Of a stretch of 64,000 nucleotides of DNA, positions 22,368-52,300 are shown in pieces; the first letter of the stretch is position 1, and every line of letters begins with the position of its first letter. The position numbers were made by a program, and so were the translations under genes. The notes below the pieces were generated by a model. That model ran no database searches. It saw only the letters and a list, made by a program, of their open reading frames with translations, and was not told the origin of the DNA. Source of the stretch: Candidatus Omnitrophota bacterium (GTDB lineage: Bacteria > Omnitrophota > Omnitrophia > Omnitrophales > Aquincolibacteriaceae); the NCBI GenBank assembly GCA_035352955.1, contig DAOPYQ010000004.1, positions 13,381-77,380 on the forward strand, read 5' to 3'.

Positions 22368-25300
22368 TTATGCCGCCGAAGAAATAACCACGTAGGCGTC
22401 AAAGAGTATTTCAAGAGCGCGGGAAGCATTAAACCCAAGGCGATCCGCAATGAATTGGCGGAGGCTCCCCGTCCTGGAGATGGCCTCATCGAGATAGGAC
22501 GACCAGGATAACTCAACCCCCGCGATAAAATCGCCCTCTTGAAGGCCCTGGAATACCGCTTTGACTTTTTGCCGCAGCCTTTGGGACAACGACTGAAGAT
22601 TGGCCGCCGCATCCCCCGTGAAATAAATGACCTGCGCGTTCCCGGGGATCTGCATGGCATTCGATTCCGTGAACACATGCCCGCCGAAACTCTCCAGCTC
22701 CCGGAGCTTTGCTTCCGTCTTCTTTGAAACCTTCCCGGTGACCACGAGATTCAGCTCTTTTCCGTAAATCCCTTTGAGCGCAAGCAATTCATTCCACCTC
22801 CGGTCGCCTTTGACCGTCCCCAGAACTTCAAGCGACCTTGCATCGATCGCGAAGAACACATTCTGCGACGGCACGCCGTCCATGAACCGGCCTTCGGCCG
22901 CGTTAGCCGGTCCACGCGCAACGCGCAACGTAGAACCTTTTTCTTTCGTTGAGCTTTGCGCGTTGAGCGTTGCGCTGTTTTCCCTCCGCATCTCGGCGCG
23001 AGGGGGCACAACCCCTCCCTCGCGGACGCCGTCCGGTTGATCGGATACCATACCGGTCTTCTCCATTTTTTGGATGTGCGTGGCAAACAATGCCGCGAGT
23101 TCCTGTCTTCCAGTCACTTGACTCACTCGTCCGGCCACGATATCCGCGGCAAATGCCATAATAAAACGTTTGAGATCGTCTTTTTCCTTAAAGAGCGGTG
23201 CATACACATCAAAAAGCGGTTGGGAAGCCGCCGGAAGAAAAACGGAAAAGCTGCCGAGGTGAGAGCCATAATCGCGGCAGTAGATCTCGAAATCAAATTC
23301 GAGGTTTTCCACGTAATGTCCCACCAGTGCCCGTTCAATCTCAAGGGCGGCAAAGAACACCTCGGGGTCATCAAGCTGCCGCACCATTTCAGGGAACCGG
23401 CTGAACAGCAAATGATCGAACATAGGGATGTCGCTGTGCCATTTCAAAAGAGCTCTTACTCTTTCCGGTCTTTTCACAGCGGGACCCTGATTGAGAAACG
23501 GCAAAATGGCGTCGATCGCACCCGAAACGGTCCGGATCATTTCTTCGATTCGCTGATTGCTACTCTCTTCCGGCATAGCCGCGGTGTTTGCCTCAAGATT
23601 CACATCTGCGGGAACGGCAACCTGGTGGAGTGAGTAAGTTATCCCAAGGTCCCCCGCGTCAAAGCCAAGGACCTCATACCGGAAAGCCCGGTCGAACGTA
23701 ATGGCATCTAACGCCCGAAACACTTCGCTCTTTAAATCGGGATATTTTTGACCCGTTTCAATCAGCGCCGGCAAAGCTTCAAATGCATCCGGTCCAAGTT
23801 TTTCCAAATCCGCCACCGCAACCTTCCTCTCAGAAGAATCCCCCTCCCGTAATCGCCGGACAAAAGGGTCGATCGTCGAATATTTATCCACCCCTTGGTC
23901 TTTTCCAGATCTTTCTAATCTCTCCTGCTTTTGGGGAAGACGCTTAAGCCCTTCGCCGTTAACAATCTTAAGCAGCTCGGAAGCCTTCGCCTGAACATCC
24001 TCGGAAGAACTATGGGCCTGACAATCCAGCAAGACAGACATCACTGTTTTCTTTTCCGTATCAATCGCAACCAAAGATTTCAATGCGTTTTCCTGAGCCC
24101 AGCTATCTGCTTTCCTTTTGACCAACCGCATCAGGGACGGAACAGCCCTTTGTGCGCCCGGTCCGATTTCACCCAGAACTTTTGCCGCCATCCTCAGTTC
24201 GACGATACGGTTAAACTGTCGACCGTAGTCCATAACGTCCATATTATCCTCTACCGTTTTGATCAAAAGGTCTACAACCTCGCCTCGTCTCGCATCGTTT
24301 CGGACGAGCCTTACAAGATTATCCCAAGCGGTGTTATCGCGATAAGCTGAATTCAACAGCAAAGAAAGCACTTTAGGCATCTCCACACCGCGAGCGCCCA
24401 ACACTTTGGCCGCGCCAAGTCTGCCTGAAAGATCCGCGTTCTTATCCTCCATCGCCCGAATCAGTGCAGACGTCAGCCGGGGATCCGCAAGATAAGCATC
24501 ATCCAAAACAGCGATAAATTCAAAATTTCCCCGTTGAATTTCCGTCTGGATCATCGGAAGCGCCATTTCTCCCATTCGCCGCAAAGCCTTCGCAAGTTTT
24601 TCACGGTTTTGAAGATCGCCCCTCCGAGCCATTGATTGATAAGCGCGGATCCAACCTTTGATCAATCGGTTCTTGTCGATGGCATCACGTTTCTCCGCAC
24701 GAAATTCATTCTGAGCGTTCGCGACAAGCACCCCCGCCGAAAGAACGACCCCCCTCACGGAATCTGGCATGCTGAACCAATCGGGGACCCGGATCCTGGC
24801 TGTAGTCCTGTCAAAGAGAAAACCCTTCCGGTCACTGCCCGGAACATCTACCGGAACGACACCCTCTCCCATCCTGGCGTACACATCCTTCACGCCCTGG
24901 TTCTTTTCCGAAGGCATGTAATACCCGACCGCTTTGCCAAGCTTTCCAACCACATAGGCCATAAAAAGGTTTTCAACCTTTCCTCCCATCCCTCCGACCC
25001 ACGCGCGACAGCTCTGGCAAAAACTTTCAATGACAGGCACCGGCCCGTTGCAATCGACCACCATCACGGCCACGATCCCCTGATCGCCTTCCCGGTCCTT
25101 CTGCTGCAGTGAAAAGACTCGGTAAGTCCCGTGCTCTCCGGACAACCGGTCCACGAGATCTTCGCGCGTAAAAGTTCTTCCGGTCATATTAAAACGGTTC
25201 GCGCGCTCGAAAAGCTCGACGACCCGATCGATCCTCGACGAAGCCGGGGTCTCTTCAAAGATCTCAACGGCCATGCCAAGTCCGCGCAGATAATCGTTAA

Positions 25301-28300
25301 AGCTTTGCCGCACGCTCTTGGCTACCTCCCAGCCTTGTTCGCGCCTCTTTTGATCTTCATAAAGACGGGTCCGGTTCCGGGCTTCCGGCGTAAGGGATCC
25401 ACTCTGAGGAGGAATAAAATCATCCAAGATCCGGGGCCACTCCGAAGGCGACGCAGGCAGTTCCGGAACTAAAACCTCGGGAAAGGCCTGCCGGACCCGG
25501 GCCCGTTCGAACGGAGAATCATCCAGGAAAACAAATGAATCGAGACCCAGGTGAAGTTTTTCGGCGATTTCCTTTAAATGTTCGGCTTTGTTCCGGTCAT
25601 CCGCCCAAATGCCGGCAAGATCCTGACGGCGCAGGGCCATTTCAGGCCTCTGGGCAAAAACCGCTTCGACGTCTTTCGGGGTATTCCGGCTTGAGATCAC
25701 CAGCAGGATTCCCCGTTCTTTCAATGCTAGAACTTTTTTCTGGACCGCCAGGAACTCTTCCGTCAGTCGTACCCCTTCCGGACCCACTTCTGACACAGCC
25801 TCACCCCAAAGCGTAAAGTCCGCATCGAGAACGACGACCTTGACGAGTTTCGGCATCGGCGCGCCAAAAGCTTTAAAAACATCTTCGGAAGCGATGGAAC
25901 GCAATTCGGCGCGGGCAGGGTCAGAATCGGGAACCTGCGGCGATGCAACCGTTTTATTCGTTTTTGCCGCTCCGCGAGCATGATCCCCAACCCCTCTCTC
26001 GCGGCTGTTCGCCTGCACTTGAGCGGCAAGCATGTCTCTCGTTTGTAATTCGGTTTTATCTTTCAAAGAATTTGCAAGCTGGTCTGTATATTCCGTCCCA
26101 ATCTCAGCAAGAACCCTGACAAGGTTCGCTTTGTACTTATCCGTACCAACATCATAAAGCGAGAGAAGATCGTCAATCCTCCTGAGAATATTCCCTTCAT
26201 AAAGCCACAAAACAACACCCTCCACCGCTGCGTCGTCATATTCGGAAGAAACAGTTTCAAGAAGCTTTCGAAGATTTTGGACTGGCTCAACGCTATAGTC
26301 TCCCGCGGAATATCGCTTTTCGGTCGGAGCCTTATCCAATTGATTCCGCTGATCATCGTGGGAGTTAAAAAAGATCGTAGGGGCGGTGTAACCAAAAGAA
26401 AGCACCGGCCTTCCGGTTGCATCAAAATATTGCACGGTCCAGCAAGCCGCCGAACTCGCTTCATCGATATCCTCGCTGCTGCGTATTTCGATCTTTTTTC
26501 CGGCAACGTCGCGGCGACTATCTTCCAATGAAAAAGGTTTCTCGATCAAACGATACTGTTCTTCGGTAATGGCCCCGCCAGTTCTAAGCTTAGTCAACAT
26601 TGCATACACTACCAGCCGGCTCGCTCCCATAATATAAATATCGCGAATGTGGTCATAAATCAGACGCACAGCTTTCCCGATACTTGGATGCTCATAACTC
26701 GCTGAAGTCAAAAATTGTGCCAAAACTACCGCCTCATTCGCACCTATGCCATACTTTCCAAGAACAAACGGATCCCTAATAATATCCTCCGCCATTTTTA
26801 ACGCAGTATTTAAGCGCTCCGCAGGATTCCTCTGATGGGAAATTTGTTCCTCCCGCATTTCGGCGCGGAGGGTCTCAGCCTCTCTCTCGCGGACGCCGTC
26901 CGGTTCGCTCTTGCGGCGGCCGAGCAATTCATGAATAAAATGTTTCTCGAGGTTTGCGGTAAAAACAGCTTTTTTGTCCGGGCTATTTTGGACCGTTTTG
27001 AACTTCTCTTCCGCTTGCTGATTCAGCTCCACGAGCCGCGGCACCGTAAATTCCGGCTTGATGCTGCCATCCGTTTGCAGATAAGCCTTGAGAAACTCCT
27101 GCTTGAATTCCGGAATATGGATCCCGTAACTGGCGTCCAGCGCGACACCGTTCTCTTCGAGGACATCCTCCCCGGTGACGAACAAAGACTGATGGTCGCC
27201 GTCCACAACGACGACGTCCCCTTCGCGCAACTTTTGACCGTTCTCCAAAACGATGGTTTGTTCATCCAACCGCGTGCCGGCCACATTAATGAGGGACGGT
27301 ATGCCGGAAAGCCGCGACAGGACCGCTTCATGCGAAGAAGCGTTCCCGTAACCTAATGTCAGCAGGCCGGAGCGGGAATATTCAAAAAGAAGCGCCAGTA
27401 GTTCATCCTGGTCTTTCTCACGCGCCACAAAAATGACCGGTTTCCCCTCCCGGATCAACTCACGTGCCCTGTCCACACTCCAGGCGAGATGGCCCTGCAT
27501 CGCACCCGGCGTCGCCGCCGGCGCAGTCGCCACGGGCTTCGCCGCTACGACGTCCCTGACCCTATAGAGTTTTCTTGACCCCAACCGCTCCTGAAGTTTT
27601 TCAAGCTGCGGGATCGCCCTGGCCTCCGTGATCTTGTTCGCCGCCAATTGTTCCCGGATGTACGCGATCTCGGCCTGCGTCGCAAAATTGATCCGGCGCG
27701 TCTGAACAAAATAAAGCTTCCCATGATTGACCACAAATTCGACCTCTTGGGGACCCACCACGTCTTCGAGTTTTTTTGCGGCGTCCACTAGTTGCGTATA
27801 GATCTCCGGGGCAACCTGCGCGAGGGCGTTGAGGTCCTCCCCCAGTTTCCCGTTCGTCATGAGTTCGCTGCCATCGGCATTCTCACTGTATCTTCCGAAA
27901 AGTCCGGCACCATTCGTGTTCGGATCCCGGGTCGAGAAAGCCCCCGCCATACACAACGCGACAGGCTCCTTGCGCGCGCGCTTTCCGTCATATTGACCGA
28001 AGGGATCAGCCTTCCCGCTTTCAAACTTCTGAACGATCAACGGAAGATCGTAGGCGTCCGGAATGCCTTCTCTTTTCCGGTACACTTTGGCTTTCGGAGA
28101 CTCCCAAGCCTTGGCCGCCGTCTGGATCTCGCTGACAGGATTGTTGAACGTTCGGATACTTTCAAGAATCCCCGGCATGGAACGTTTGGGATTGCTTCTA
28201 ACGATCAAGTCTTCATAACCCCCGGAATGGATCTTAATGCCAATACGGTTTAATTGCCTTTTAATAAAAGCGTCATAGACCGGCCTTTCTTCGTATTGAA

Positions 28301-31300
28301 TCCCCGCCAAAACAGACGCCAGCTCCGCACTGAGGGCGATCCCCGGAGGATAGGGCAATCCCAGCTTTTCAAAGATCAGGAATCCGGCTTCCTTGTTCCC
28401 CATCCCGCGTTGATAAATCCCCTTGCCCAGCTGACGGACCCCCGCATCGACCTTCGCCTCGACATCGGAATACTCTCCCAGCAGGATTCTTCTCAGGAGG
28501 ATGCTGTCAGCCGAATAGTAAAGCTCCATCAGGTCGCCGAATTCTTCCGGAACAACGAGAGAGTCCACTGCGACGCCCATCATATAGTGACGGGTTGAAT
28601 CCCAATCCTCTATATTCCGGTAATATTTTAAATAAGCATTCCGGATTCCGAACTTTTCTTTCAGAAAAACAAGGAACGGGCCTTCCATCACTTTTTTCGT
28701 CCCCTGGGGAAGCCCCTCCAGAAACCTTGCGTCATCCTCCGGAGTATCCAATCGCGTGCTATCGGATTGGGTTATGATGACCACCATGCCCGCTTCTTCC
28801 GCGGGTTCCAGTACCCGCAAATGCGATTTCCCGATTTGGTAAAGTTCGAAAAGAGCCTTCAGGTCCAGCTTCGGATTGATCTTGATCGCGGCTCGATAGA
28901 TCGCAGTAAATCTCTCATCCGGAGATTCTTGAATCCCGAGATCTTTGAGCCGTTCTTCCAGGGACTGTTCGGGGACCGGTGGGAAAACGATCCTGCGGAC
29001 CGTCTCATCGCCCGCCGCGAAATAAAATGCGGCGAAATCCGCGTATTCGGAAGTAACCTGCGTCATTTCCTGTTCCGTCACGTGACCCAGATGTCTGTTC
29101 ACCTCATAATCGATCTCGCACTCTCGCTCAATAACGCGATACGCCTGAGGAACATGAAAATCGCGACGCAGAGCCTCACAAGAAGGATCGTGCAAAAACG
29201 TGAACCTGACCTTTTTGTCTTTCCTGGTATCGAGCACCTTGCTAGCGGAATAATCCAACAGACCATAAAATTCTTCCCATTCATCGATCTTATAGACCTG
29301 TTCGCCGGAAGAACGGACCGTCGAAAGCCCGTCCTCCGCCCTCGAAGGCTGTACCATCCCCTTCTTCACCTTCGTATACGTTTCATACAACAATTTTAGA
29401 TCCAGCCCGGGGTTGACCCCTTGGGCGACCCGGAAAATGGCCATCAAAGAACCGTCCACCTCGGCTCCCGGGATCCCTTTTTCACTAAGGCTACGTTTCA
29501 AAGCCTCGGCATCCATCGGTTGCATCCCGGCAACACTCTTGCCCGTTCCTCTAAGGAGGTTCTCCATCGCCTCCTCGCCCAGAACAAGCATCATTTCGAT
29601 AAAAAGGTCGTGTTTCCCGGACGGAACCAGGAAGTCATCGCCTACCGATTTCCATCCGCCCTCAAACCTTTGCAAAGCGCGACGTTCTTTCTCGACATAC
29701 CCGCACCCGAAAATGCCATAGAATTTTTCAAGCAGCTTCAGGAAGGGATGATCCTCGACCCGTTCAACCCGGGGCTCGAAAGAATCCGCATACCGGACAT
29801 ATTCTTCATATTGGGTCGAAGGCCCGAGACGGAAGCGGCCTTTTTCATCCTTCACCGGATTTTTCTTTCGCGCCTCGAGAAATTGGTCCCGAGCCTTCTC
29901 GAACGCCACGAGATCAAGACCGGGATTAATGCCTTTCATGAATCCATAAAGCTCCTTGAAGTCACCCTGCAGATCGATCCCGAAAATCCTGGATTGAACG
30001 TCCTCGGAAGCCGACCAGGCGCCCAGGATCAGACAGAGGAACACCGGGATCGTCTTTTCAGCGGGGAAAACCAGCGTCAAACGCATTTTATCTTCCGAAT
30101 AGTGGGATTCACTGCGTTCATAATATCCCGCCTCCACCACGGCACTCTCGAGATCCGCAGGGATCTTTTTTCGGTGAAGAGCCACAAGGATTTTGGGACC
30201 CTCCAACATGTGCCAGCTATCGACATTATGGGAACGCTCGGTACTGATGGCCTCGGTGGCAAGCGCAATACGCAGATTTCCAGACTTCACTATCTTTTCG
30301 GCCACGGGTTCGAGGATCCTCTTGACCCGCATCAGACGTTCCCAATCCCCGCTAACAAAGACCCTGAGGATTCCGAACGAAATTTCCTGAACGTAGGGAT
30401 CCTCGGAAATGAGCCCGGAAACGAGATCGTTCAGCATTTTGTCGCTCACGATACTTCGGTCCTTCCCGACGATGACCTCGACAAAGAAACCGATCACTTC
30501 ATGACTCGTAAAATGCTCCGACGACGCCCATCCGGTATAGGGCGGCACAAAATGCGCCATCGTCACAAATGTTTCAACGATCGCTTCCAGACTTTCCCTT
30601 GTTTCAGGAAGTTGCTTGAACGCCCGGGCCGCCTGGACCCGCTTTTCTTGCTCCCGGTCACCCAGAAGCCTCACGATCCCGGCGATCTGTTCCATCTTTC
30701 GCTCCTGCGAAGTTTTCCCGGTCCGGAAATAACGCATAACCTCCGCTTCATACTGCGCGGGAACGATAAGATAAGTTTGAGTCTCGATCCTGTCACTATG
30801 GACCCCCTCCTGCACATAGCCCCAGCTTCCTTCCGTCACCATCGAAGCTTCCGGGATCTCCAAACGATCCTTGACCGTCGTGAGAACGGGATGCTGATCG
30901 ACCCGTTCCGGAAAACGCAGCATCTTCGCGGGCGCCTCTTCCACGGAAACGAGAAGATTACTTTGCTCGACCCAAAAACGTCCCGGCGCGACTCTTACGA
31001 TAGACTTCCCCTCGGCCGGTCCATTCGCCCGAAGTATTTTTTCAGCGACCTGCTCCACGAGATCGTCCTCGGTTCCGTTGTAAGGATGCACAAAAACATA
31101 CCGGCCAAGATCACCGCTCCACCTTGCAGCCTTAGAGAGTTCGCTAATGAAATCCCGGACGTCTTTTTCGGCGGCTTTGTCCACAACGAGGAAATAATCA
31201 TATTCGAAAGATGCAAAATGACGGGTAGGAGCCATGTCTCCCGGAAGCTCGAGATACTCCAGCGAAACGGGCACCAACGCCCGATTGATTTTTTCCGCGA

Positions 31301-34300
31301 TGACGGCGGCATAAGGCGCTAGGCCCTTTTGCTCAGCCTCGGGCAATTCCCAGCCATCGCTTAACGTGGCCGTGCCGATATGAATACGGGTCTTTCCGTC
31401 CTTCGCTTCGGCCTCGAGCAACTCCGCTCTTTTTTCAACAGAGATCCCGCGAAGATTCACGGACGCATTGACCTTTCGCGGTGAGCCCTTGATCGGTTCT
31501 TCCCGGGGCGGCCATCCCAGCGTAGGTCCGACATGGCGGAAATAGTTTTGAGAACCGGTTTGGTCTCTCTCCGAATTTAGGAAATCATCCGGGTAAGATA
31601 CCCAAAGTTCCTGCCCGTTCTTTAATTTGACCAGATACTTGTATTCATAAGTGCCTTCTTTGAGACGGCTCGTGATCATCCACTCCGTTTCCCCCTTCCT
31701 TGTACCACTCCGCATCTTAAACTCCGGGGCAGCCTTCCAGTCGTTAAACGACCCCGCCAAATAAACCGCCTCGATATCGCTTTCGTCAATTCCTCTAGGC
31801 CGAAATTGGAATGTGACATCAGCGCTATACGGTAAACGCCGCTCCGCGCGGCGGCCATCTCTCGCTGCCGGCGGGAAAGTGTTTGAATTAACCAAATTCG
31901 ACTGCCTCTCAGCCCGTTCGAGCGGAACAGGCGTAAGGACCGGGGCGCCGGGGTCCAGGGCGTACTTCTGACCAAAGAACCGGAATTGCAATTTGCCCTG
32001 GATAAAATCAAATGGGTCGAACGATTCCCCTTCCGGAACGGGTTCCGCATTCCAATCCGTCGCGCCCGTTTTTTTCTCAAGCTTATGCGGAAACTCAACC
32101 GGACCGGGCACTATTTCTTTTTCACTTTTTCTCCAAAGTGCGTTCCATCGGGACGCCGGCTTTTCAATAACGACCTCCCGCGCATAGAGCAGCGATCGTT
32201 TATGGTCCCGGTCATACCTCACCATAAAAAGGCGTATCCGGTCCGTGGAAATCCTGTAAAAATGGAGGCCGCTCACCATCCCCCGAAAAGGTTTTTCTTC
32301 AAAAACCGGTGTGACCTTCCCGTCCTTGACCGCAACGCACAAAGTCCGGGGATCCGAATCGCTCCTCCAGGTGCGCACCTTCATCTTTTTGGCGACCACA
32401 AGCACCGAGAACGGCAGGTCCGCAGCTTCCACGACTTCTCCCCAAAGAAGATCCCTGTCCTTGAACCGCTCCATATTTTTGGAGGCCTCCTCATCGGAAA
32501 CACCAAGCCTTCGGAACGCTTCGGCAATATCGGAGCGTCCTTCCAGATACATGCCCGGGATCTCTTCCCCGTTCCGGAGTTCTGCGCGGACGTTTTCGCT
32601 CTGTTCGATAAGCGGTTTCAGGATCAGGGCCAGAGTCTGCGGCGTCACGTGCCCTTTTGGAAAAGGAAGGGTATTGCCTATACCCGCCAATTCTTCTTTG
32701 TCGAGCCACACGCCCGAGATAAAAATGATCGGCGTCCTGATCCCCAATTCTTTCCGGAATCTCAGCGCAACATGATTCCCATTCCAACGCTCTCTCACCG
32801 TGCGGAAATCCTCTCCTCGCAAGCGAGCGGCATTTTCTTCATCAAGACGAAATTTCAAATCATCCAATGGCATGCTCACATCCGAAAGGATCAGGTCGAC
32901 CTCGCCGGCGTGCTCTTTCAGATAATCGAACATTTCTTTTCCGTCTTTGACGGAAACGGTCTTGATCTCCGAACGCCCCAGGGACCGGATCCCCGCTTCG
33001 TGATCAGACCGGAAATTCGCCTCATCGTCCGCGATCAGGATCGTCCGGACCGGCCTTTCAAAATGAAGTTCTGAGATCCCGGAAATAAAAGACTTCACGG
33101 CTTCCGCCTCTTCCGGAGAAAGTTCCTTCGCGACCTCGACCACTTCAGAGGTAACCCGCAAATCTTCCTTCCGGAGACCTTCACAAATACCGCGAAACCG
33201 GCTGGCCATATCGAGCTTCCAAACCTTCATCGAAATGTCCGCGAAACCTTCCTTCGCGATATTCTCCCGATACTCTCGAAGCAGACCGTCCAGCTGCGTC
33301 AGCATAAAAGCCCGCGCCTTTTGAAGATGGGCTGTCGCCGCCGCCCCATGCGAAGCACCACGGACCGCCGCCAAGGCGTCTCCGTAGATCTTGAGGATCT
33401 TTTCCCTGTGGATGCGTGCGATCACTTCCATTTTATCCTGCTCGCCCCGGACGAACGCGTCCCGCCACCTCTGCCACCAGGCGCCGCCCGATTTGACAAA
33501 ACCGCTTCGAAGCTCGGCACGGTCCGGGCGATCAAAATTCCGAAGCTTCCGGGTCAGCGCGTCGAATTGTTCCCCGAAAAGGAATCGTACATAACGGGCA
33601 TGAAAATGATGCTGGAGCGATTTGACCGCGGTATAGATCACGGACGCCCGCGAGGCAAAAAGATGCGCCAGACGGTTCTGCGCATAAAGCTCGTTGAAAA
33701 GGATCCCGCCGGTCACCCGGATCCCGTTATCGATAAGACGCTGGTTGGGTTCCCTGCCCGCCGCCCGCTGCGCACTGTAACCGTAAACAACGTTTTTAAT
33801 CCCGGCGCTCATGATCAATTTCTCGCACCATTCGCAGGGAGCCATCGTCACGAAGAGCGTCATCGAACCCATCGGATCTCCCAACCGGTCATTCACCCAG
33901 GTAAACAGCGGAAGATCGGCTTCCGGGAAATAGCGACTGATCTTCAGAGAGAACCTCAGATAATCGATCGTCGTCTTGATCTTTTCCGCGTCCTCGAACC
34001 GAACACCGGCGGTCTGCCGGGCCTGAAAAATTTTATCAAGCGCATCTACGATGGCCATACGCTCGGCGTGCTGCTGTCCCAGTCCGTTCACCGCGAGGGA
34101 GACCCCTTTCCCGTTTTGATCCACCACCATCCCTCCAACCTTGACCATTGAGGAAAACGGAAAAGCACGGAACGGGTAAGCCGCAACATAATTCATGACC
34201 TGCCGCATAGAACTCTCAAGCTTCGCGCGGTCCTGCAGGCCCTCCGAAACAACCCCCTCGCTTCGGAGCTCTGCGCGAACGACCAGCAAAGTTTTTAAAT

Positions 34301-37300
34301 AATCTTCCAGGGAGCTGAGGACCTCTTGATAGTCTTTCCTGGCAAGAACTTCCGGACGCTTGGACAGAGCTTCGCGGAACTCGCGCGTTTTGACGCCCAG
34401 TTCGCGCGCTTCTTCGTCGCTCCCGCGCCGGATCACAAAATCCGCGTTTGCCTTCGTGGGCTCGACAAAATCTTTTTCTCCTGCGGCCACATTGTCCCAG
34501 AGCGCGAGGGTGCGGAACGGATCCTTGAACTGCCGCTCCGTCACGTCCCGCCACAGTCTCCGCATGAACCGGATCTGCCACGGCGTATCGAGATAAACTT
34601 TCAAAACAGGCACGTCGGACGCAACCGCCGCGGTAAGTTTCGGGTGCAAGGTATGAAGTCCTTCGACGCCGATCACATCTTTGCTCCCAAGCACCGGCTC
34701 TCGCGCAGGCTCCGGCTTTCCGAACGTGCTGGCCGGGATCACGGCTGTTCCGTCTTCGTGGAATTTCTGCACCGTTCGCGCCACCGCCGCAAGATCGTAA
34801 GCATCAATGTGGTCAAAATCAGGCTTGCCGTTACGGAGCGGACATTCCGCCTCCGGTTTAAAATAGCGGTCTTCCGGCACCCATTCGATCTTCCGGCCCT
34901 GTGCCGCCATCAAAGCGTCAAACTCATTGAGCATCCATGATTTCCCCGTCGCGGAAGGCCCCGCCACGAGCAGCACTCCCCTCGGCGGCAATTGCCGCAG
35001 CCTCTCCGAAAACGCTCCCTTCACCTCATCCCACGTTCCAGAGCGGAGTTCGGCGCGACCACGCTCGGAAGACAAGGACGCCGCGAGTGAATTCAGAACC
35101 CGGGTCACACGTTCGATCCTTTGATCCGCCTCAGGGCCTGCTTGAAATTCCCTCAGCCCGTCCGCCCAAAGCTCCGTTTTCAGGAGAAGTCTTTCGAGTT
35201 TATCCTTTTCGACGGGGAGATCCTGCGCAATCCTTTCTTCAATGGACGTCAGCCTCGAAAGAAGTTTACTGGAATAAGCCAGAATGAAAGCCTGCCGGTC
35301 TTCGGAGTTGGGAGCGGACCGGATCTTCGAGATCAGCCGTTTGATGAACCGCTCGTTATATTCCGGCCGACGGTCCGTAAGGAACGAGGTCTTTTTAGCG
35401 TCCACGATCCGGGGAGGAAGAACCTGTCTTTCGCCGATCAACTCGGGGACAAGAGTTCCCGCGGTCACTTCCGCGACGATCTCATTTTCAACAAGTTCGT
35501 CAAGCGCATCCTGGCTGGTCATGACTTTGGCAAAAGACGCCAAGGGCATCAAGGCGGCGGAAAGCTCCGGGTGGAACGCTTCATGTTCCCGTCCAAGAAC
35601 GCTGGCCAGGATATGTTGAAAATAATTACGCCGGCTCTCGCGGGTCCAGTCGGCCGTCAGGCGATCAAAATAAGGCCTGTTATGACTGGCGATCTCCGCA
35701 AGCATGGCTACCGTGATCGCCCGGAGATCAACTCCGCCGCCCTGCAACGCGAGCTGGTAGCCCTCGCGCGCCGCCAGAAAATACTTTTCGTTCAGGTCCA
35801 GGCCTTTCCAGACAACGGTTTTTATTTCTTCCAGCAGTTCCAGGTCGAGCTTTTTGGAAGACGGCGTCACGGAGGCGCTTCCCGCCAGGTAGAGTTCTTT
35901 GATATCTCTGAAATAGATCTCGTACTTTTCCCCATTCTGTCTTTTCTTTTCCGCCGTGACCCCCAGGGCTAGGCTGATCAAAATCTGTTCGCGAGAATGT
36001 TTTTCCCAATCTTCGCCAAATTGCTCCACCTTTTTTTCCAGCGCATTAAAAATGAACCGGGTCATACCAACACCGACTAAAAATTCCGCCCCTATGCTCT
36101 CATGCCCCATCGAGACGCCAAAAAGATGAAGCCCGAGATAGGTCATGACCACGATCCCGAGCGGCACCAGGCCGGTGTAAAGAATATGCCCGATCACCGT
36201 CGGACCGAACATCCGGTAAGTCCGAAGCACGGCATATTGAAAGCGATTCATCTTTACGCCCGGCAGCTCCACTTTCCCATCCGAAAAATGTTCCGTGACC
36301 GCCGAAACCGCATCTTCCATAAAATCGCGACCTTTTTCAAGATCCTCGCCTTCCGGCGATCCCGGCAGCGGCGCAAAACCGATAGTTTTGTGCGCGAACC
36401 GGTTCCTCGGCATACGCCCTTTTTCCAGAACCGGCCGCGGTGAAAGAAAATGGCGCCGGACCACGCCGAAAAGGAATTCGGGAGAATCAAAAAAATGAGT
36501 CTCTCGCAAAGCTCTCATCAGATCCCCGGAGCCCTCAACCCGCTGGATCAATTCCTCTCCCGGATTTCTGTATTTTTTCCACCGCCCGGAGTTATAAAAA
36601 TCCGTTATCGCCGGAAGCAGGTTCCGCAGGATCCCGGCTTCGACCTTTTTTCGCGCAGCCGGTAAGACCTGCGCCATGGAACGCGAAAAATGCTGCGCCT
36701 TGAAGTTGATCCGATCCGCTTGAGCCAGCACCGCCGGATCGACTTCCGTTTTCACATACCGCTCGTAGGTCCCAATCAAACGGCTGATACCCGTCATATC
36801 CAGGTCGCGACCTTCGGCGTCCAGATAACTTCCCATCATGTCGAGCGTGGCGAGCGCGATCAGGAATTCGCAGGCCCGCTCGATCTCTTTCTGCTCCGTA
36901 ATCCCGGCCCTGCGAAGGTCCCGGACAAAAGCCACCAGTCCGTCGAGTTTCTCAAGCGAGTAACCCAGCGCATGATGTTTAATAGAAAGCAGTAATACGG
37001 AATCCCCGGAGATATCAAGGTCCCCGTACCTTACGGGGTTCTTCGAGAGAACCTCGTAAGAATCATTTTCATGCTCGTGGAAGCTGTAACTTTGTTCAAT
37101 ATCGCCGACGGCCATCTTCTTCGCCTGATATTTTGTGACCTTCCCGATATCGTGCCCAAAACAGGCGGCCTCAATCCTTGCGCGATTTTCGTTTGCCAGA
37201 CGCCGAATAAAGATTATCGCCTGCCAGGGAACGCGTGGATCCCGAAAATGAGGGCCTTCGATCTTCCGGAGAGCTTTCAACATCGCTCCGATATGGTCCT

Positions 37301-40300: not shown

Positions 40301-43300
40301 GCGCGCGGTTCCGTTCCGGCCACCATTTCTCGTCCCACTCGCTTTGCGACGGACCCAGCTGCCCCCGCGAAGTGGTCATCACGGGCGACACGCGCTTCAT
40401 CGCGTTATTCCCCTTGGCGGAATCGATCAAAAACAGGACGTTCGAAAGAATGTTCTTGTCTGAGATCCCGATGTCGTCATCCATCAATCCAAGGATCGTC
40501 GCTTTTGCATTATCACGGGCATATTCCACGATCGCGTTCACCGCGTTGGTCTTCCCCGAAAAGATCTCCCGGTATTTTTTGACCCACTCTATCCGGCGCG
40601 GATCGTGACGCTTTTCCCAAAACCCGTTTAAAGCATCCTGGATCCTCGTCGCGACTGAGACAACCCGGGGATCAAAAACCTGCCTCCCAAAGATCTCCAC
40701 ATACTCTCTACCATGCAACCGCCCCGCAAGCGGCATATGGATCACGGTCACGGGAATCTCCGAAGTGGAGCGTTCCTTTTGGAATTGCAACACCGCGGCG
40801 AGATAAGCCCCTTGTTCCAGGCCATTCACATTGATCACCAGCTCGGCGTTCCAGTTCTTTTCTTGCTTAGCGGACTCGCGACGGAGAATTTTCAAGGAGT
40901 TCAGGACCGTCTCGAAAAAAGCGACCCGTTTTTTAGCGTACGCTTTTGTTTCTTCTTCCGTACCACCGCTATACGCCGACGGGATCCCGATGACGATCGA
41001 TTGTTGATCGCTACGGATCACCTCTCCGGCCTTCGCCTGATCGATCTTTCGATCGCGGAGAAAATCCGCCACATCGGTATAGACCTTCCCGAAATATTCC
41101 TTGTAGTCCTTTGTCGCAAAGACCGTTTTTCCGTCCTTCGCGCTATAGATCTTCAAAATAACGGGCCGCCCGTCCTCAAAAACAGCAAACCCACCCCTCG
41201 ACCGAAGCTCCGCGCGACGAAGGTCCTGACTTAGCGAACGCCCTCCGCTAAAATAGGGCGCAAAATCCTTTTGGATCCTCCGGATCGTCTGCATGACGCT
41301 CGCCTGTACCGAAGGCGACCGTTGTCCTTCGCCAAAAACACCCCCGCGATCACGAAAATAAAGAGTGTCCAGAAAATCCACAAGGAAGAACCAAGGAAGG
41401 ATATCAAGCTCCTCATCGCTGAGCCGACTTGTCCCGGCTTCCTTTTGATACGCCTTCAGAGCTCGTAGAAGTTCTTCGGCTGTCCCATGAACGTATGCCT
41501 TCGCCCCCCCACGGCCGGAACGGAAAAGGAGGCCCGTAAAATCTTCAATTCGATAACCGAACCGTGACGCTTCCCAGTCGATAATCTCCCGAATCTTTCC
41601 GGCATCATCAAAAAAAAGGTTGGCAAAATTAATATCGGAGTTGATCGGCTGACGAGAGATCTTCCGGAGAGCCTCCCGGACTTTCGGAAAAGCCTCGTCA
41701 AGGAGAGACAAAATCAACGCACTATCTTCCGGGGGATAGTTCTTTCGAATATTCTCACGAAAAATCCGGCGGCTGTTCTCCATGTCATCAAACGCATGGT
41801 CACGGACCCAGCGATTCAGCTTAGGCCATTCTGTTTCACGAACACCTGCGGTAGCAGAATGAATCCTGGCCAACCAACGAGCAACTTCTCCCATCATTTC
41901 CGGCGTTGCCTCTTCCCGTTTGATGCTCCGATACCCGGCAATCCACCGTTCGACCATGAAATACCTCACCGCATCCACCGAACCGCCCTTGATCCGAAAG
42001 ATCAGATGCTCTGCATCCTTCTCACCCGACCGGTAGATCACGGGGATCGGAACACCTCTTTGAAGGTTACGGTGAATCACCTCGGCAACGAAAAGCATCT
42101 GCGTTTCTTTACCGACCGGATCGAGGTCCGTAATCGGCTTGATGCAAAATTTCCCCTTCGAAGTCTCAAGGACTGGAAGGGTTTTCTCATTGTGAGTGAA
42201 AAAGCTAATCGCCCGAAGTTCGCCCAATTGATACTCATCAAAAAGACGCCGGATCTCATCGGGGGTCCATCCCTCAAATGCTTTGGCAATATCAGCCTGA
42301 AGCTGATCAGAACCCAGGCTTTTCAGCAGCATCTCCCCGTGGGACGGTCCCCGGATCCCCTGTCCAACATCCCGTGTTCGTGACATTGCAAACACCGGGT
42401 CTTTGTACGGTTCCTGACGGCGCAATTCGGCGCGTGATTCTTTCCGTTCCGACCGCGCGCGAAGTTCATCGAGAGCGGCGCCAACGTCTTTCCCGAGGGC
42501 TTCCATGTACCCCTGGATCTCACGGCCAAGTTTCGTACGCGCTCCGGGGTCTCCCTTGAAATCAAAAAAGCCGTCCAGCATGTCGAGGAGCCGGTTCGCT
42601 CGCTCGGAAAATCCCCGGTCCGGAAAGAAAGATTGAAGGATGTAGGCGGAACGCGTGAGATAACGCGCGATATAATCATCCTCAAAAAAGTCCATGTGAT
42701 CGCCGTCGATCGCCACACCGAAACTGCGCTCCAACATCCGCCGGTTGTACAAAAAGTCCGCGTACTTGAGAACGTCATTCGTCTCAAGCGCCGTCGGCTC
42801 GGCCGCGCTCGGCTCTCCCATCAGCGTGACAGAATCCATGATCGCGGGATGGAATTCCGAATTCCCGGCCATGATAAAAAGATCCATCTGAAAAGGCTTG
42901 TGATACGCCGGCAGCGCGTCGGGGAAAAGCTCGGGAAGAAGACGGGCCTTGAGATTCCCCTGGAACAATTTGCTCGAAGGATGCCGGAATTCAAGAATCA
43001 GATCGAAATCCGAGGGGACGCGAGCACGGCCGACCCAGCTCCCGAAGGCCTCAAGACGCACCATCCGGAAACCGCGTTCCTGCATCTCATGGACAAAGGC
43101 CTCCATATAACGCGACAGGGAAACATACCGGGTTTCGTTCCCGGGAGCCACTTGGGAGGCTTTGGCGTACAGGGAATCCTCCGTCGCCTTCTGGGCCTTT
43201 TTGAAAACATCCCCAAAATCTTCATTCACCCAGAGGTGGGGCCGGACCTCCACCGGGATCTCCGGAATATGGCGCACCACTTCCCTCACCTTGTGCCGAC

Positions 43301-46300
43301 GCTCCGGAGACCAATACCGGAAGGCGTAATTCTGCGCGAGGGATCGTTCGACAAGCTTGGGATCGATCTGGAATTTGAACGGCGTACTGGAGAACCGGAA
43401 GAAACGTGAGAACTCCCCGAGATGCGTGTCCAGATAGTCCCGGACCCCCGGGGTCACAAACGTAAAATCGTAATGGGTCCGCATTTCTAAAGACCGGAGA
43501 CCCGCATGAAAACGCGTATCGTTCAGGTGAACCTCATAGGGAAGCTTTTTCAGGCTTTCCGCTGGGATTTCGTCCCCCGCCCCGCTGCGGATAAAAAGAG
43601 TCGCCGCACCTTTTTGAAATTTCCCGGTAAAATTCCGGAGAGCTTCGTCAAATTCCTTGCGCCATTTGAGGAACGTCTTTGCGCCTGCGACCACGATCAG
43701 GGATGTTGAGGTCTTTTTTTCCGGAGCGGTCGCGCGGTTCAGCTCTGCCACCTCGACGGCAGCATCAACGCTGGTCCTACCGGGCATTTCCTCCGCCGTA
43801 AGCACGGTCTGCATGAGCGGTGAGAAGATGTCCGTCAGTCTCCGGGACATCGCCTCGCGGTGTTTAAACGGAAGCTGAGTCGGATTCCCGCTCGGACCTT
43901 TCCCATGATCGCCCATCGGAACAAGCACGGCCACGTAGGTTTTAGGATGCCCGCGGTCCTTCTCCGAAGCAAAAACCAGCGCATCCAGCAGCGCGTCGAT
44001 ATGATCCAGGTGCGGAAGCTCGAAAGTCCCCGGCAGTGCCACGATCACCTGATCGCCCGGCCTGCTCCCGGAATTTGCGGCAGGATCTTTCGCCGAAGTC
44101 CTCAGGGGAGCGGACGGCAACAACACATCTCCGGCTTCGATCCGCGACCGGAGCGTCCGCAGATTATGATTGAATTTCTTACGGATCGCCTCGAACTTTG
44201 CCATATCTTCGGACTCCGCAACGGCTCTCATCGCTTCCAACTCCTTGTTGAACCGCTCGAGGATCCCGTTCATCGCGACAAGGGATGCAGCATCGGCCTT
44301 GCGACCGGTCGGGGTCAGCCGCCCGTTCTCCCACAGAAAATTCCCGCCGTCTTCGCGCGTGATCCGGATCTTCAGGCCCCCGTCACGATCGTCTACGTCA
44401 AAGGCCCGGACCCGGTCATAAACGGCCGTGGTGTGGGTCTCGCGGTCATAGGTCGAAACCACCACCGAGTCATCCATGTTAAGAAAGACATAAACATCAT
44501 AGCGCCCCGCCAAGTTATAGTAGGTCACGGTCTTGAATGAAAACGCTTCGACTTTTTCGCCATGGCCGAACGCCCGGACCGTCCTCACCACTTCTTCCGA
44601 AAACGCGGGATTGAGCGCGTAAAAAAGGGCGTCATTAAAATAAACTTCCGGACGGTTCCTCGCATCGCCCACGTAATCCTCCCAATCCACCCAGTCGATC
44701 GACCCGACCCTCGGATCCGTCACTCGCAGATTTTTCTCCGCTTCCGGCGTGAGAAAGATCGCACCGAGGGAAGCGAACTGCCGGGAATGGATCGAGGGAT
44801 CCTCCTTGTAACGGCTATGCGTCCGGAGCCAGCCGGCGGTCCGGATCTGCATGAACTGGAACCCGCCATCTTCAAGTCCGTATTGTTCCTTTAACGCACG
44901 GCGAAGGACTTTTTCAAAACTCCCGCGGTCTTTCGGCTGATAAAGAGCCTGGACACTCAGATCGAACCGCCCCTTGCCGAGGTGAACCGACTGAGACCGT
45001 TGTCTGCGCAGGACTTGCAGCCGACCCTCCGGGCTCTTTCTGAAAATGAATCCTTGCAGGGATTCATGCCAAAGCCCCTCACGATGAACAATAGCCCTTT
45101 CCTCCACGGCAACCGAAGTTCGCGTGGCCGGATCCACCACCGGCAGTTGTTCCCTCTGGTATCCCCTCTCGCCTTCGACGGGAACGACCCTGGCCTTTTC
45201 GAGCTCGGCGATCGCAAGGCTGACGCTCTGCTCCAACGCCCCGATCTGACTCCGCACCGATTCAAACAACCGCTTCCCGGTAGGAATGCTTTTTTCCCGG
45301 CCGGTCATATCATAGTAACGGTTAAGGTCGTTCAATAACCGGTTCGCACGGGCTGCAAAATCCTTATCGGGAAAAGTCGTGTGCAACAAAAAAGCGCCAC
45401 GCGTTAGATAACGCACCAGGAATTCATCGTCAAAGAATCCGCCGACCCCGCCCTGCCCGATCTCGTCGGAATACTTTTCCCGCCTTGTGCGGGTTTCAAA
45501 AAGATGCTTGGCGTGCACGAGGACCCGCTCAACATCCGCTTTCTTGGGATCGAGATGGCTGACCGGTCCGAACAGCGTGACGGAATCTTCGATCGCCGGA
45601 TCGTACTTTTCCGAAGGGGTGGAAACCAGTAGCTCCATGCGATTGACGCGAAGATTTTTGGCAACACCCTCAGGGTAAGCCTCCGGAACCAGATCCGCGT
45701 GAAGCGTGCTCGAAAAGAATTTGACGTTCGGATGTTCGAACTCAAGCCTGAAATCGATATCACCGGGATCCCGGGGGCCGGACGTCCAACTCCCGGTCGC
45801 TTCGATACGAACGAGCCGGAAACCGCGGGCGACCATTTGATCCACATACGCCTCAAGATAGTCCGACAAAGGAACGGTTTTCCCGGGTCCAGAAGCGGCA
45901 GCGAGAGCCCCTTCAGCGACCTTCTGGACTTTGAGCCCATAATCCCCGAACTGTCCGCCGTCATAGAGATAATCACGGACCCGGACCGGGATCTGCGGGA
46001 TCTGCCGGATGAGCCTGCGCATCTTTTCCTTCTGCGACGGCGGGAGATAACGGAAAGCATACTTGTTCTCGAGAACTTCGTTGATCTGCGCGTCCGTGAT
46101 CCGGAGTTTAAACGCTTCCGCCCCCTTCGCGTTCTCTACTTTTTCTTCGCTGCGAAGCTCCGCGCGGATTGCGCCTTTCAGGATAAATTGAGCGATCGTC
46201 TTCCCGCTTTTCGAGGCTTCCTGTTTGATCCAATGGTCCGCCGCGAGCTCATCCCCGCGAAACCGACCGACGATCTTTGGGTAGGCGGGGCTGCGGACCG

Positions 46301-49300: not shown

Positions 49301-52300
49301 AAACCAATTCCGCGGAAAGCACGATCCCGGGAGGGAAATCGAGTCCCAACTCCTTCAGATGCTCAAAACCAATTTCTTTGTTCCCAGGCTTGGAATCCGG
49401 CCGGATCTCTCCCAGAATGGAAACGTTCCTCTCCACTTCATCCTTGAAGGTCAGCTCCCCGGGGAATAAAGCCCGCAGCGTACGGGCGTGACCCGCTTCA
49501 AGATAGAGCGCGACAAAATCTTCCGCGTCCTTGGGAACCTCGAGCGCTTCTTCATAAACCCCGTACGGAAAATGTCTTTCCCCGTCATTGTAAACCATCT
49601 TACGCACCTTCATGCGCGCGGTCCGAAGACCGAAACGCTCACGGAGAACGTTCAGGAGCGGATGTTTTTCAAGAGTCTCTTCCTCCCGCTCTCCGACCAC
49701 ACGAATCCCATACAAGCTGATGAACTCCTCTTCCTCCTCAAGGGTTTCAAGCCATTCCCGGACATGCTTGACCCGGAGCTCACCTTCAGAATCCCGCTTC
49801 ATCAATTCCCGGTTCTGCGCGAAAAGTTTCCGCAAGGCCACCCGGTCACAATGGGGGTTAATACTGGTCGCGAACCGGAGGATCCGTTGAAATGTTTTTT
49901 CCGACGGATCCGAAGGCTGCGCCGCTCCTCCGTCGATCAATTGCCGAAACGCCGACATCCGATCGGGGGTCAATACGTCCGGAGCCAGAGCCCCGATCAT
50001 TCCTTCAAAAAATTCCCGCAGGATGTCCCGGGCTTCCGGGCTCATGCCCGCCAGAAGACCTCCCTGAAAAAGAAAATTCAAAACATCCTGATAAAATGTC
50101 CCCTCATGTCTCACCGCAAGTTCTGCAAGAAAACATCCCGCCGCAGTGTCCCCGGCGATAGCGGCTTTCAAAAGTTGTTCGGTGTGGGAGGCATCGGTGG
50201 ACGAGACCCCGTCCGGAGGAAGATCCGCCTTCGAGACCCGGGCGCCCGTCTTCAGGCTCGAAACGATCACCCCGACAAGCTGATCCGCAAAATATTTTTC
50301 GCTGCCGGCCCCGAACGCACGATGCACCATGAGCGTGTTGGGATATTGAAACGAAGGGCTCAATTCGTAATGCCAGTGGAATTTCCCGCGAGCCACCCGC
50401 ACGACCGTTCCTTCCTTCTCACGCTTCGCCGGCTCTCCCGAGTACCAGAGGATCGGCCCCCGGAATTTGAACCGTTCCCGCAACTGCCGGATAAGCACGT
50501 CCCCGTTCATGAGCGGCATATCCGTATCCGTAATAACCAGGTCAAAGAGCCGGTCCGGGTTTCCGGAATTTTTCTCAAAGTATTCCATGGCCTCGTTTCC
50601 GTTCACGGCCATCACGACCGTCCGCTCCTCCGCGGTAAGCGTCGTCTTCAGGAGTTCACGGATATTCTCCCGGTCTTCCACGATGAGGACCCTCCGGAGT
50701 CCGGCCTTCGGGTCCACAAGCCTTAGCTCATTGGGCCGGAATTCGCCGTCGTCCGTTCGCAATTCCGCACGACGAATGTTCCCCGAAAAGGAGCTGTCCC
50801 CTTTCGTTTCCGGCTTCATTCCCCGAAAAGGATCATTCAACTGCGACAAGAGTCCGCCCGGAGCCTGTACGATCTCAAAAAGAGAGTAAGACTCTCCCTT
50901 AAAATCCGCCTCATCTGCTGTTTGATATTCGAAACCGTCGATGCCGTTCGCGGCTCCGCGGGCATACCGGGTCTTGATCAGCCAGTAACGACCCGTGCTG
51001 GTTTCCAGAAGAAAGGAGTCGGCATTTACCCGTTCCCTGACCGGAGCCACCCTGACGTGAAGAACTTTTCCGAGGCGGGGCATGCGCGGCTCGAACCATT
51101 CGGAAAGATACCGGCCACGCAATTCCAGAAGATTCACGCGTCCGAAATCATTATTCAAAAACAGGAACTGCCCCGCGGCATACCACAAATTGTATTTCAG
51201 GAACAAACCGGCCCACAGACTCCCGGGATCAAAAGCCATGACAACAAGAGCCCCGGCAGCCACGAACAGATTCCCCAAGGTTCCCGCCGAGCTGATCCCC
51301 AAGAACCAACGCTGCGGGATCCCCGTCGCGGAGGACTCGGTAAATTTCACCTGCCAGCCCAACCAATCGATCTTGAGATTCTTCAGCGGTATTTCCGGCC
51401 ATGAAATCGCGTTCAGATATCGGGCCGTAAGGTAGTGGAAAATTTCATGCACGTAGATGCTTATTAGAATTGCAGCCACCCATGGCATCGAAACGAACGC
51501 ACCGATCAGCAGCAGATCGAAATAATTGACCAGGTATTTTCCGATATCGGAACGGCCCTTGAAACCCTTGGCCGTTAAAATAACCCGCCGCGATAAAAGA
51601 GACCCCGTCATGATCCCGAAACCTTCGCGGACGGCTAGAAAGAAACTCAGTTTCGAAAGGGTCTGAAGGATCCCTCCCGGGACATCTCCCGCAAAAACCA
51701 TCGCGGCGCCAAGCCCCAGGAATACAGCCACCGGAACGCCGCCCATTTCAGAAAATTTCTTTCCAACATTTTTAGCCTTTTCGCGCAAGGCAGCCCCGAA
51801 CGCCGGCTTTCGGGGCGCCGGTTCCATCTCTCCCTTCATCCCGACCCTGTGAAAACCGTATTCGATGCCCTCGTAAAGGATCCATGCAATCAACCCCGCA
51901 GCAATGCCCGAACTTCCCAAAAACAATCCGGCGCCCACAACATACCAGAGCCCTGAAAATTTCCGGTAATAGCCAAAACCTTCAGCGCTCGTCCACCGGA
52001 AAACGAACCGCTTCCACTGTTCTTTCAGCCAGTTTCCTTTCTCCGGCACATCCTTGGCGACGGAAGTCACATCCTTTGTTTCGCGTAACTCTGCACGAGA
52101 TTTTTTCACAACAACGGAGGGCGCTCCCTTTCCGAGCAAACGATCCAACGTCCCGAGATCGGTCCCGGGATGAACGCGCAAAGCTTCATAGACCGCACGA
52201 ACCTCAGCGCGCCCGTTAAGGGAAGGGTGGAAAACCGGCAAGACCCTCGCCGCGGTGGCAAGGACCGACACAAAAGGTTTTTCAAAAGAGAGGAAGCCTT

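Follow-up and report, generated by a model that had tools for sequence, protein, structure and literature searches.

A 64,000-nucleotide (nt) stretch of DNA from a Candidatus Omnitrophota bacterium (assembly GCA_035352955.1, contig DAOPYQ010000004.1, positions 13,381 to 77,380 of the forward strand; hereafter the window) contains a gene, giant open reading frame (ORF) 2, whose product is a multi-enzyme protein punctuated by a recurring pentapeptide. By translation this gene is a single unbroken ORF of 10,500 amino acids (aa) on the minus strand (window 22368-53870), and its length in public gene calls is 10,483 aa. The pentapeptide is established to be a strict linear motif under selection at the peptide level, which lies in exposed linkers, marks the starts of modules, is confined to one class of proteins and is tuned per genome. 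We put the probability that it represents the protease processing sites of a bacterial polyprotein at about one half.

RAELR was by far the top recurrent 5-mer of the window protein, with 11 copies against 0.05 expected from composition, and the broader pattern RAE[LMIV]R was present 16 times against 0.29 expected. Across 1000 residue shuffles, the maximum recurrence of any 5-mer was 4 and that of RAE[LMIV]R was 2. An earlier note on this DNA had listed 15 sites of the form RAE[LM][RL] and argued that they were not due to chance. All 15 were found in frame in the 10,500-aa ORF (Table 1), and the shuffles never came near 16. Three of the listed coordinates were off by 7-10 nt (true positions 33507-33521, 26853-26867 and 34263-34277); two sites, RAEIR (aa 5007) and RAEVR (aa 554), had been missed. 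One listed site, RAELL (aa 7481), is doubtful because position 5 is strictly Arg across the family (419 Arg versus 6 Leu, with 6.65 Leu expected by chance), and this sequence is probably a decayed or chance match rather than a functional instance. A six-frame search of the window outside giant ORF 2 recovered a single match, which was out of frame, and the other ORFs were devoid of the motif, in agreement with the note.

The motif was nevertheless not unique to this gene, but runs through the multi-enzyme giants of the Omnitrophota. A HMMER search of 1.8 billion representatives with aa 6201-7400 of the window protein recovered other giant multi-enzyme proteins, in which the top recurrent 5-mers were RSEMR, RSEVR, RSELR and RSEAR. 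R[AS]E[LMIVA]R sites numbered 7 in P0002 (4775 aa), 21 in P0003 (7976 aa), 9 in P0004 (4659 aa) and 17 in P0007 (6523 aa), against a chance expectation of 0.1-0.15 sites in each. A scan of one genome per species, using as query an alignment of the N-terminal domain common to the window protein, P0002 and P0004, identified 80 loci in 49 metagenome-assembled genomes (MAGs), often with several paralogues per genome. All 80 were in Candidatus Omnitrophota/Omnitrophica MAGs or in MAGs interleaved with them. Over the 222,673 aa of the 80 homologous giant ORFs, 418 sites were counted, a density of 1.88 per 1000 aa as compared with 0.022 expected (~87-fold), with a median spacing of 296 aa and spacings below 60 aa in 18%. 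At least one site was present in 76/80 giants, and at least three sites in 50 of the 57 giants longer than 2000 aa. By comparison, the 416 neighbouring ORFs shorter than 1500 aa held 7 sites in 146,938 aa. These 7 were confined to four ORFs, of which three extend to the end of a locus and probably represent fragments of other giants. Enrichment in homologous giants and specificity for one protein class, two checks proposed in the earlier note, were thus both borne out. A 12,124-aa giant immediately upstream of P0002 (L009 1-9721, GCA_964482725.1) was observed to carry two sites (RAEVR and RAELR) in its last 3240 aa, a density below that of P0002.

The consensus across these giants is R-[S/A]-E-Φ-R, of which the window genome carries the minority Ala variant, with Ala at position 2 in 16/16 sites and Leu at position 4 in 11/16. 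The RAE[LM]R code described previously was a real punctuation mark, given in a wording that does not hold for the family. Positions 1 and 5 were Arg only, with no Lys at position 1; position 2 was Ser in 85% and Ala in 15% of sites; position 3 was Glu only, with no Asp; and position 4 was occupied by V, L, M, A or I, with some T and S. The flanks were nearly information-free, although positions -1 to -3 leaned to small residues. At position +1, S, T, Q and A were enriched, F/Y/W/L were observed 22 times versus ~87 expected, and Pro was present at 0.4 times expectation. This pattern fits a P1' preference combined with avoidance of bacterial N-degron residues.

The enzyme-like strictness of the motif, without Lys for Arg or Asp for Glu, would also suit a site of post-translational modification, at which a dedicated enzyme alters an Arg or the Glu and so marks the linkers for regulation or turnover. 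The exposed and flexible setting of the motif, and a tuning that tracks the genome (both described below), are compatible with this explanation. However, Ser and Ala exchange freely at position 2, to the point that Ala has replaced Ser throughout the window genome, indicating that Ser is not a phospho-acceptor. Further, no modifying enzyme was found linked to the giant genes, and a mark of this kind gives no reason for a location exactly at module starts. Modification is thus an improbable explanation.

Codons varied at each position of the motif in the window protein, which indicates selection on the peptide, as the earlier note had held. Throughout the family all synonymous codons were in use, including six for Leu, six for Arg and both Ser codon families. 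These data bear on the hypothesis that the motif is a by-product at the DNA level, namely the translated scar of the recombination or insertion events by which cassettes were joined. Consistent with that hypothesis, three PDGVRE...RAEMR cassettes in the window protein share ~50 nearly identical nt, a double-site cassette is duplicated in P0002, and modules have been shuffled between giants along with their boundaries. However, the peptide is invariant while all synonymous codons occur at each motif position, drawn from both Ser and both Arg families, and the 30 Leu sites of a single genome (JAUYMS01) use six codons. However the linkers arose, the peptide must thus be under purifying selection, and a DNA scar, now largely refuted, is the least credible of the explanations considered.

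The three cassettes in question, at ~39729-39785, 26853-26909 and 22986-23042 on the minus strand, read PDGVRE(G/R)(G/E)..(P/L)RAEMR and hold the palindrome CGGACGGCGTCCG. Their near-identical DNA suggests recent copying of linkers by recombination, and such copying may aid the shuffling of modules between giants. The duplicated cassette of P0002 has the form RSEMH-LNSVDSSTTRDS..-RSEMR. Usage of Arg codons also differed by position (sites of L010-L089), with CGC/CGT making up 77% at position 1, and CGG 38% and AGA/AGG 27% at position 5.

The sites of the window protein were located at module boundaries, as the earlier note had reported. When the 16 inter-motif segments were scanned one by one against Pfam, domains were complete within segments and typically started 20-40 aa past a motif. 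These segments contained a REC + PPDK_N + PEP-utilizers + ARMT1-like unit, a DUF6932/poly(A)-polymerase-like nucleotidyltransferase, APH, HAD, HD, PRK/uridine kinase, dCMP deaminase, REC and CBM48/CBM20 domains, a second PPDK-like unit and HEAT repeats; REC and PPDK_N/PEP-utilizers each occur twice. The motifs were also found in flexible linkers, another check that the note had proposed. Order-promoting residues fell to 0.20-0.23 within ~10 residues either side of the motif, compared with a background of 0.33 (437 sites). When aa 6241-6800 were modelled with AlphaFold, the predicted local distance difference test score (pLDDT) exceeded 90 in the PRK domain, and all three motifs fell within, or bordered on, stretches that scored below 50.

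Module boundaries were compared with those of homologues. The first residues of P0009, a stand-alone PRK homologue, are MAQIS-GTWHEIK, and this start coincides exactly with RAELRS-GTWDEVK in the giant. Residues 5007-5478 of the window protein are 54% identical to residues 1810-2275 of P0002, and the motif is present at both ends in both proteins (RAEIR/RAELR versus RSEAR/RSEVR). The C-terminal boundary of the PRK module is likewise kept (VVRAELRSE in the window protein versus ADRSEVRDS in P0002). Some sites occur in tandem, 7-40 aa apart with no domain between them, an arrangement that resembles the spacer peptides of processed polyproteins.

Position 4 was heterogeneous across genomes (chi-square p = 1e-29). 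It was Leu in 30/30 sites of the six paralogous giants of JAUYMS01, Ala in 16/21 sites of CAYGIT01, and mostly Val in SICL01. The six N-terminal domains of JAUYMS01 are ~50% identical to each other and equally close to those of differently tuned genomes, and for the CAYGIT01 paralogues the closest N-domains elsewhere (60-64% identity) come from giants with M, L or V. Position 4 therefore tracks the genome and not the history of the protein, which points to a shared trans-acting reader, one per genome. A motif that was merely a structural part of each module would not behave in this manner. In other lineages, GFGA and SSSP[VILA] stand at positions equivalent to those of RSEΦR. GFGA was observed 10 times in the 3467 aa of one giant (L073, JACQQS010000037.1), the first two copies directly after the N-terminal domain; SSSP[VILA] was observed in 5-8 copies per protein in P0021, P0042 and P0111, and RSEKR/RAETR in L012.

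Differences between genomes are also relevant to a co-translational signal, whereby the nascent pentapeptide would slow the ribosome so that each module folds, or reaches a chaperone or the translocon, before the next is made. The motif stands shortly before each module, it is plausible that chains of such length require checkpoints for folding, and known bacterial arrest peptides contain Arg-Ala elements. However, the position-4 preference differs sharply between genomes while the exit tunnel is highly conserved, and the unrelated GFGA and SSSPV motifs occupy equivalent places elsewhere. In addition, there was no match to known arrest sequences, and the choice of Arg codons was varied. We regard pausing as very unlikely.

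The N-terminal domain of the window protein had no Pfam match, and its profile had no match among PDB sequences; one of four homologues of the domain matched PF04187 (ChaN, Tiki superfamily) at 1.9e-5. An AlphaFold model built from an alignment of 45 sequences (database fragments) reached a pLDDT of 81.6 and a predicted template modelling score (pTM) of 0.84. The domain models as an alpha/beta fold of the TIKI/TraB/erythromycin-esterase superfamily, with a parallel beta-sheet core as in ChaN, Ere, TraB and RRSP. Invariant or near-invariant residues comprised Q-D-A-H (D106 and H108), E136, which is 28 residues past the His, and G-G-F-H (H485). By sequence spacing, these residues match the catalytic 2His/2Glu signature of active superfamily members (E-x-H...E...H), with Asp for Glu as the first acidic residue. 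The same 28-residue spacing between His and Glu is found in Bcr135 (H85/E113) and RRSP (H3902/E3930), and TIKI and RRSP are sequence-specific endopeptidases (PMC6254334). The superfamily also includes esterases and a haem-binding protein. In 68/77 homologues a motif was located 40-220 aa past the domain. A stand-alone 431-aa protein composed of a signal peptide and a TIKI-like N-terminal domain (P0169, L090 10001-11296, on a 462-kb contig) shows that this domain also exists as an independent gene.

The earlier note had pointed to protease-like modules within the giant itself, and this suggestion is supported, at the level of models and weak profile matches, by the predicted TIKI fold and by an M50-like membrane module with an HExxH sequence. 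Against PF02163 this module scored 13.2 bits (E = 0.056) in the window protein and, for P0002, 25.0 bits (E = 1.4e-5), both short of the cut-off of 27.2 bits. The M50-like module was rejected as a universal reader, since HExxH was present within 470 aa past the N-terminal domain in just four of the giants examined. An FtsH-like protein encoded next to the window giant was rejected as a dedicated protease, in the sense of a general explanation, because homologous giants adjoin unrelated housekeeping genes. Internal translation starts at the Leu or Met codon of the motif were also rejected, CTN and TTA codons being common there.

From these patterns we infer that recognition of the motif leads to cleavage, where the scissile bond lies and what the reader is. 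In the proposed mechanism, the pentapeptide of the window protein would be the local Ala-type form of a phylum-wide R-[S/A]-E-Φ-R placed at the N-terminal edge of each enzyme module, and would be read by a sequence-specific, genome-encoded factor. This reader would most likely be an endopeptidase that cuts the giant precursor into separate enzymes or small groups of enzymes. The cut would probably fall after the second Arg, leaving a small, non-destabilising residue as the new N-terminus. The best candidate protease would be the TIKI-superfamily head domain, acting in cis and/or in trans, although an unlinked protease would be equally possible. Polyprotein processing is the most economical explanation because of the strictness of the motif, its tandem sites, the replacement of the code in particular lineages, the pattern at position +1 and the conserved head domain with a protease fold. 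More tentatively, giant polyproteins may be the form in which Omnitrophota produce a large part of their metabolic and regulatory enzymes, and a dedicated protease, possibly the TIKI-fold head domain, would cut these precursors at a strict R-[S/A]-E-Φ-R code that is tuned per genome and swapped for GFGA or SSSPV in some lineages.

The main competing explanation is that the motif is never cleaved, and instead serves for docking or regulation, with one partner per genome (a chaperone, a scaffold or part of the giant itself, for instance its HEAT repeats or C-terminal domain) organising or regulating the string of enzymes. Strictness, location in linkers, tuning by genome and specificity for one protein class fit docking and cleavage equally well, the tandem sites and the +1 pattern being the exceptions. 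Docking would also supply a reason for the fusion, in that the enzymes would be tethered to a membrane anchor, and the conserved C-terminal tail described below suggests that an intact chain end matters. However, tandem sites without an intervening domain have no obvious docking logic, the motif marks the exact start of a stand-alone homologue, and position +1 avoids Pro and N-degron residues. Moreover, domains with protease folds are conserved in the family, and no candidate binding partner was identified. We therefore consider docking the less likely of the two, a doubtful but serious alternative.

Several findings weigh against processing of the giants by proteolysis. Literature searches found no cleavage products or neo-termini at motif sites. 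No N-terminal domain was found in the sequences at hand for P0003 and P0007, which are rich in motifs (21 and 17 sites), and processing in cis by this domain is therefore not the whole story. None of the columns of the N-domain alignment covaried convincingly with the position-4 preference, a comparison of low power. The depletion of hydrophobic residues at position +1 was just somewhat stronger than the general bias of linkers. Boundaries are not always marked, as the first APH copy of P0002 is without a site, and the N-terminal boundary of its PRK module shows a clean 5-residue deletion (KRGRGTWD versus ERGRAELRSGTWD). With respect to topology, the Sec-type signal peptide implies an extracytoplasmic location for the N-terminal domain and for the first site, whereas the majority of modules are of cytoplasmic type (REC and ATP-dependent kinases). 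Counts of hydrophobic segments between sites, obtained with a crude predictor, showed no bias that would place all sites on the same side of the membrane. A preprint on long proteins of Omnitrophota runs into the same topology paradox (bioRxiv 10.64898/2026.06.07.730766). Export toward a host or prey cell by these presumed episymbionts is conceivable.

Two side observations concern these points. The indel in front of the PRK module (window 35043-35060 versus P0002 aa ~4285) removes the motif exactly (ERG-RAELRS-GTWD versus KRG-R-GTWD). In another giant (L025 ~11500-12000), the N-terminal domain is followed straight away by a radical-SAM module, and no membrane segment separates the two.

The window protein is a member of the multi-enzyme giants of Omnitrophota, which are of the same phylum, exceed 10,000 aa, have a signal peptide and membrane segments, and display the same kind of domain string (REC, HAD, HD, kinases and PPDK-like units). 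Such giants have been described by West-Roberts et al. 2023 (10.1101/2023.11.21.568195), Nielsen & Lui 2026 (10.64898/2026.06.07.730766) and Seymour et al. 2023 (PMC10066038). These papers propose cleavage on the basis of C39 or S8 peptidase domains and state that the cleavage points are unknown (10.1101/2023.11.21.568195; 10.64898/2026.06.07.730766; PMC10066038); they make no mention of a recurrent linker motif, a shared TIKI-like N-terminal domain or an [AS]A tail. A survey of huge proteins named the lack of protease motifs as an obstacle. Literature searches for RAELR, RSEMR, RSEVR, RSELR and Omnitrophota polyproteins found nothing relevant, which agrees with the statement in the earlier note that no such system had been described.

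By analogy, the closest functional counterparts of these giants appear to be viral polyproteins and MARTX toxins. In viral polyproteins, such as those processed by picornavirus 3C and flavivirus NS3, one ORF likewise encodes many units with a short consensus at each junction. The viral consensus is read by a protease of the same ORF and differs between lineages, as do the RSEΦR, GFGA and SSSPV motifs of the giants; some viral sites are also of the tandem or spacer type. Unlike the viral case, the giants belong to a cellular organism, they string together enzymes of metabolism and regulation, each genome encodes several paralogues of them, and their processing is a prediction from sequence. The MARTX toxins of Vibrio release effector modules, RRSP among them, by means of a cysteine protease domain (CPD). 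MARTX sites are loose, falling after Leu. A MARTX toxin is secreted by a type I system and its TIKI-fold module attacks host Ras and not the toxin itself, whereas the Omnitrophota giants have a Sec signal peptide, enzyme modules of the housekeeping type and a strict pentapeptide. Neither RTX glycine-rich repeats nor an inositol hexakisphosphate (InsP6)-activated CPD was found by the per-segment Pfam scans of the whole window protein. In proteins processed by Kex2, precursors of the pro-hormone type and the gingipains RgpA/Kgp of Porphyromonas, short Arg-containing sites also separate units, and the gingipains demonstrate that Arg-specific polyprotein processing exists in bacteria. Their sites are minimal, however (a single Arg or Lys, KR or RR), and the units are peptides or adhesin domains, not dozens of unrelated enzymes. 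The same per-segment scans detected neither a kexin nor a gingipain domain.

The junction motif occurs in a setting and on a scale that are unexpected for polyprotein sites or for a short linear motif. Three recent papers ask whether bacterial giant proteins act as one chain or are cut, and give the absence of known cleavage points or protease motifs as the obstacle; a strict phylum-wide motif gives exact coordinates at which to test this. It also offers a principled way to split the giants for structure prediction and annotation, into segments with a median of ~300 aa, and a marker for this protein class in metagenomes. If cleavage occurs, this would be polyprotein expression of housekeeping-type enzymes in a cellular organism, a counterpart of viral polyprotein expression and a new organisation of gene expression in very small bacteria, and it would yield a new, highly specific pair of protease and site with possible use as a tool. 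Should cleavage not take place, the motif would nonetheless be a pointer to a partner that organises very long enzyme chains.

Table 1. Motif sites and other features of the window protein, in window coordinates.
Feature	Position	Strand	Remarks
Sec-type signal peptide or anchor (aa 1-38, ...FPSQALA/NTP)	53757-53870	-	From sequence and hydropathy
Conserved N-terminal domain (aa 62-559)	52194-53687	-	Modelled TIKI/TraB/erythromycin-esterase-like fold; candidate reader or protease
RAEVR (aa 554)	52197-52211	-	Helix modelled with confidence, C-terminal end of N-terminal domain; doubtful as a site
RAELR (aa 592)	52083-52097	-	Between N-terminal domain and membrane module; 68/77 homologues also have a site here
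Membrane module (aa ~640-910)	51141-51953	-	Hydrophobic segment containing HEIFH; weak resemblance to M50 (site-2 protease)
RAELR (aa 1034)	50757-50771	-	Precedes REC + PPDK-like + ARMT1-like segment
RAELR (aa 2569)	46152-46166	-	Precedes nucleotidyltransferase-containing segment
RAELR (aa 3813)	42420-42434	-	Precedes APH-like kinase module
RAELR (aa 4219)	41202-41216	-	Follows APH-like module; counterpart boundary in P0002 is RSEVR
RAEMR (aa 4710)	39729-39743	-	21 aa ahead of HAD domain; in duplicated PDGVRE...RAEMR linker cassette
RAEIR (aa 5007)	38838-38852	-	Counterpart RSEAR at aa 1810 of P0002
RAELR (aa 5478)	37425-37439	-	Precedes HD-domain segment; counterpart RSEVR at aa 2275 of P0002
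RAELR (aa 6272)	35043-35057	-	Precedes PRK/uridine-kinase module; inside stretch with pLDDT<50; stand-alone homologue starts here
RAELR (aa 6532)	34263-34277	-	PRK/deaminase junction; edge of low-pLDDT linker; P0002 has RSEVR there
RAELR (aa 6784)	33507-33521	-	Deaminase/REC junction; low-pLDDT stretch
RAELR (aa 7095)	32574-32588	-	Precedes CBM48/CBM20 segment
RAELL (aa 7481)	31416-31430	-	Position 5 not Arg
RAEMR (aa 9002)	26853-26867	-	Follows second PPDK-like module; PDGVRE cassette
RAELR (aa 9320)	25899-25913	-	22 aa ahead of HAD motif I, FkbH-like/HEAT segment
RAEMR (aa 10291)	22986-23000	-	Last site, 210 aa from C-terminus; PDGVRE cassette
C-terminal domain (aa 10296-10500)	22371-22985	-	Ends ...YVVISSAA; [AS]A tail kept in family

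The window locus is also present in digester metagenomes and in GCA_035403665.1. Over the last 8.3 kb of the gene its four public copies showed no differences, and variation among them was therefore uninformative. The flanking genes are of the housekeeping type and include hrcA-grpE-dnaJ, gpsA, a FadL-like porin, the FtsH-like protein and uvrA. Two genes of the same orientation immediately precede the giant gene (window 54212-57269, minus strand). One encodes the FtsH-like AAA+/M41 protease, of 555 aa, which has a short atypical N-terminus and scores 451 bits against an equivalog cut-off of 600; the other encodes a 459-aa protein without a family match. Neither gene is kept beside homologous giants. 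The same window contains giant ORF 1 (2123-15703, minus strand, 4526 aa), which has faint RHS-repeat and weak beta-helix Pfam matches (public gene calls). Its translation has neither the punctuation motif nor any recurrent 5-mer and, within this one genome, belongs to another class of giants than the product of giant ORF 2.

Hydropathy analysis of the window protein revealed a hydrophobic bundle at aa 640-890, which contains HEIFH, and a hydrophobic hairpin near aa 5900. At the opposite end of the chain, the sequences of 16/19 complete giants, and that of the window protein, close with [AS]-A-COOH after a hydrophobic stretch (for example YVVISSAA, LVFATAA and VVITTSA). This tail was seen in L013, L016, L020, L025, L031, L033, L037, L043, L046, L047, L051, L054, L065, L071, L073 and L075 and in P0002-P0005 and P0007, and it is kept even in lineages without the RSEΦR motif. 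It is preceded by a weakly conserved domain of ~200 aa, for which no Pfam or NCBIfam match was found. The 'AA' chain end recalls the ssrA degron.

A final observation concerns the region between aa 7095 and 9001 (window 26868-32588), where a CBM48/CBM20 starch/glycogen-binding region is followed by a PPDK-like nucleotide-binding and phosphohistidine unit. A paralogous PPDK-like unit is present at aa ~1500-1950. The order of domains at aa 7095-9001 recalls that of glucan, water dikinases.

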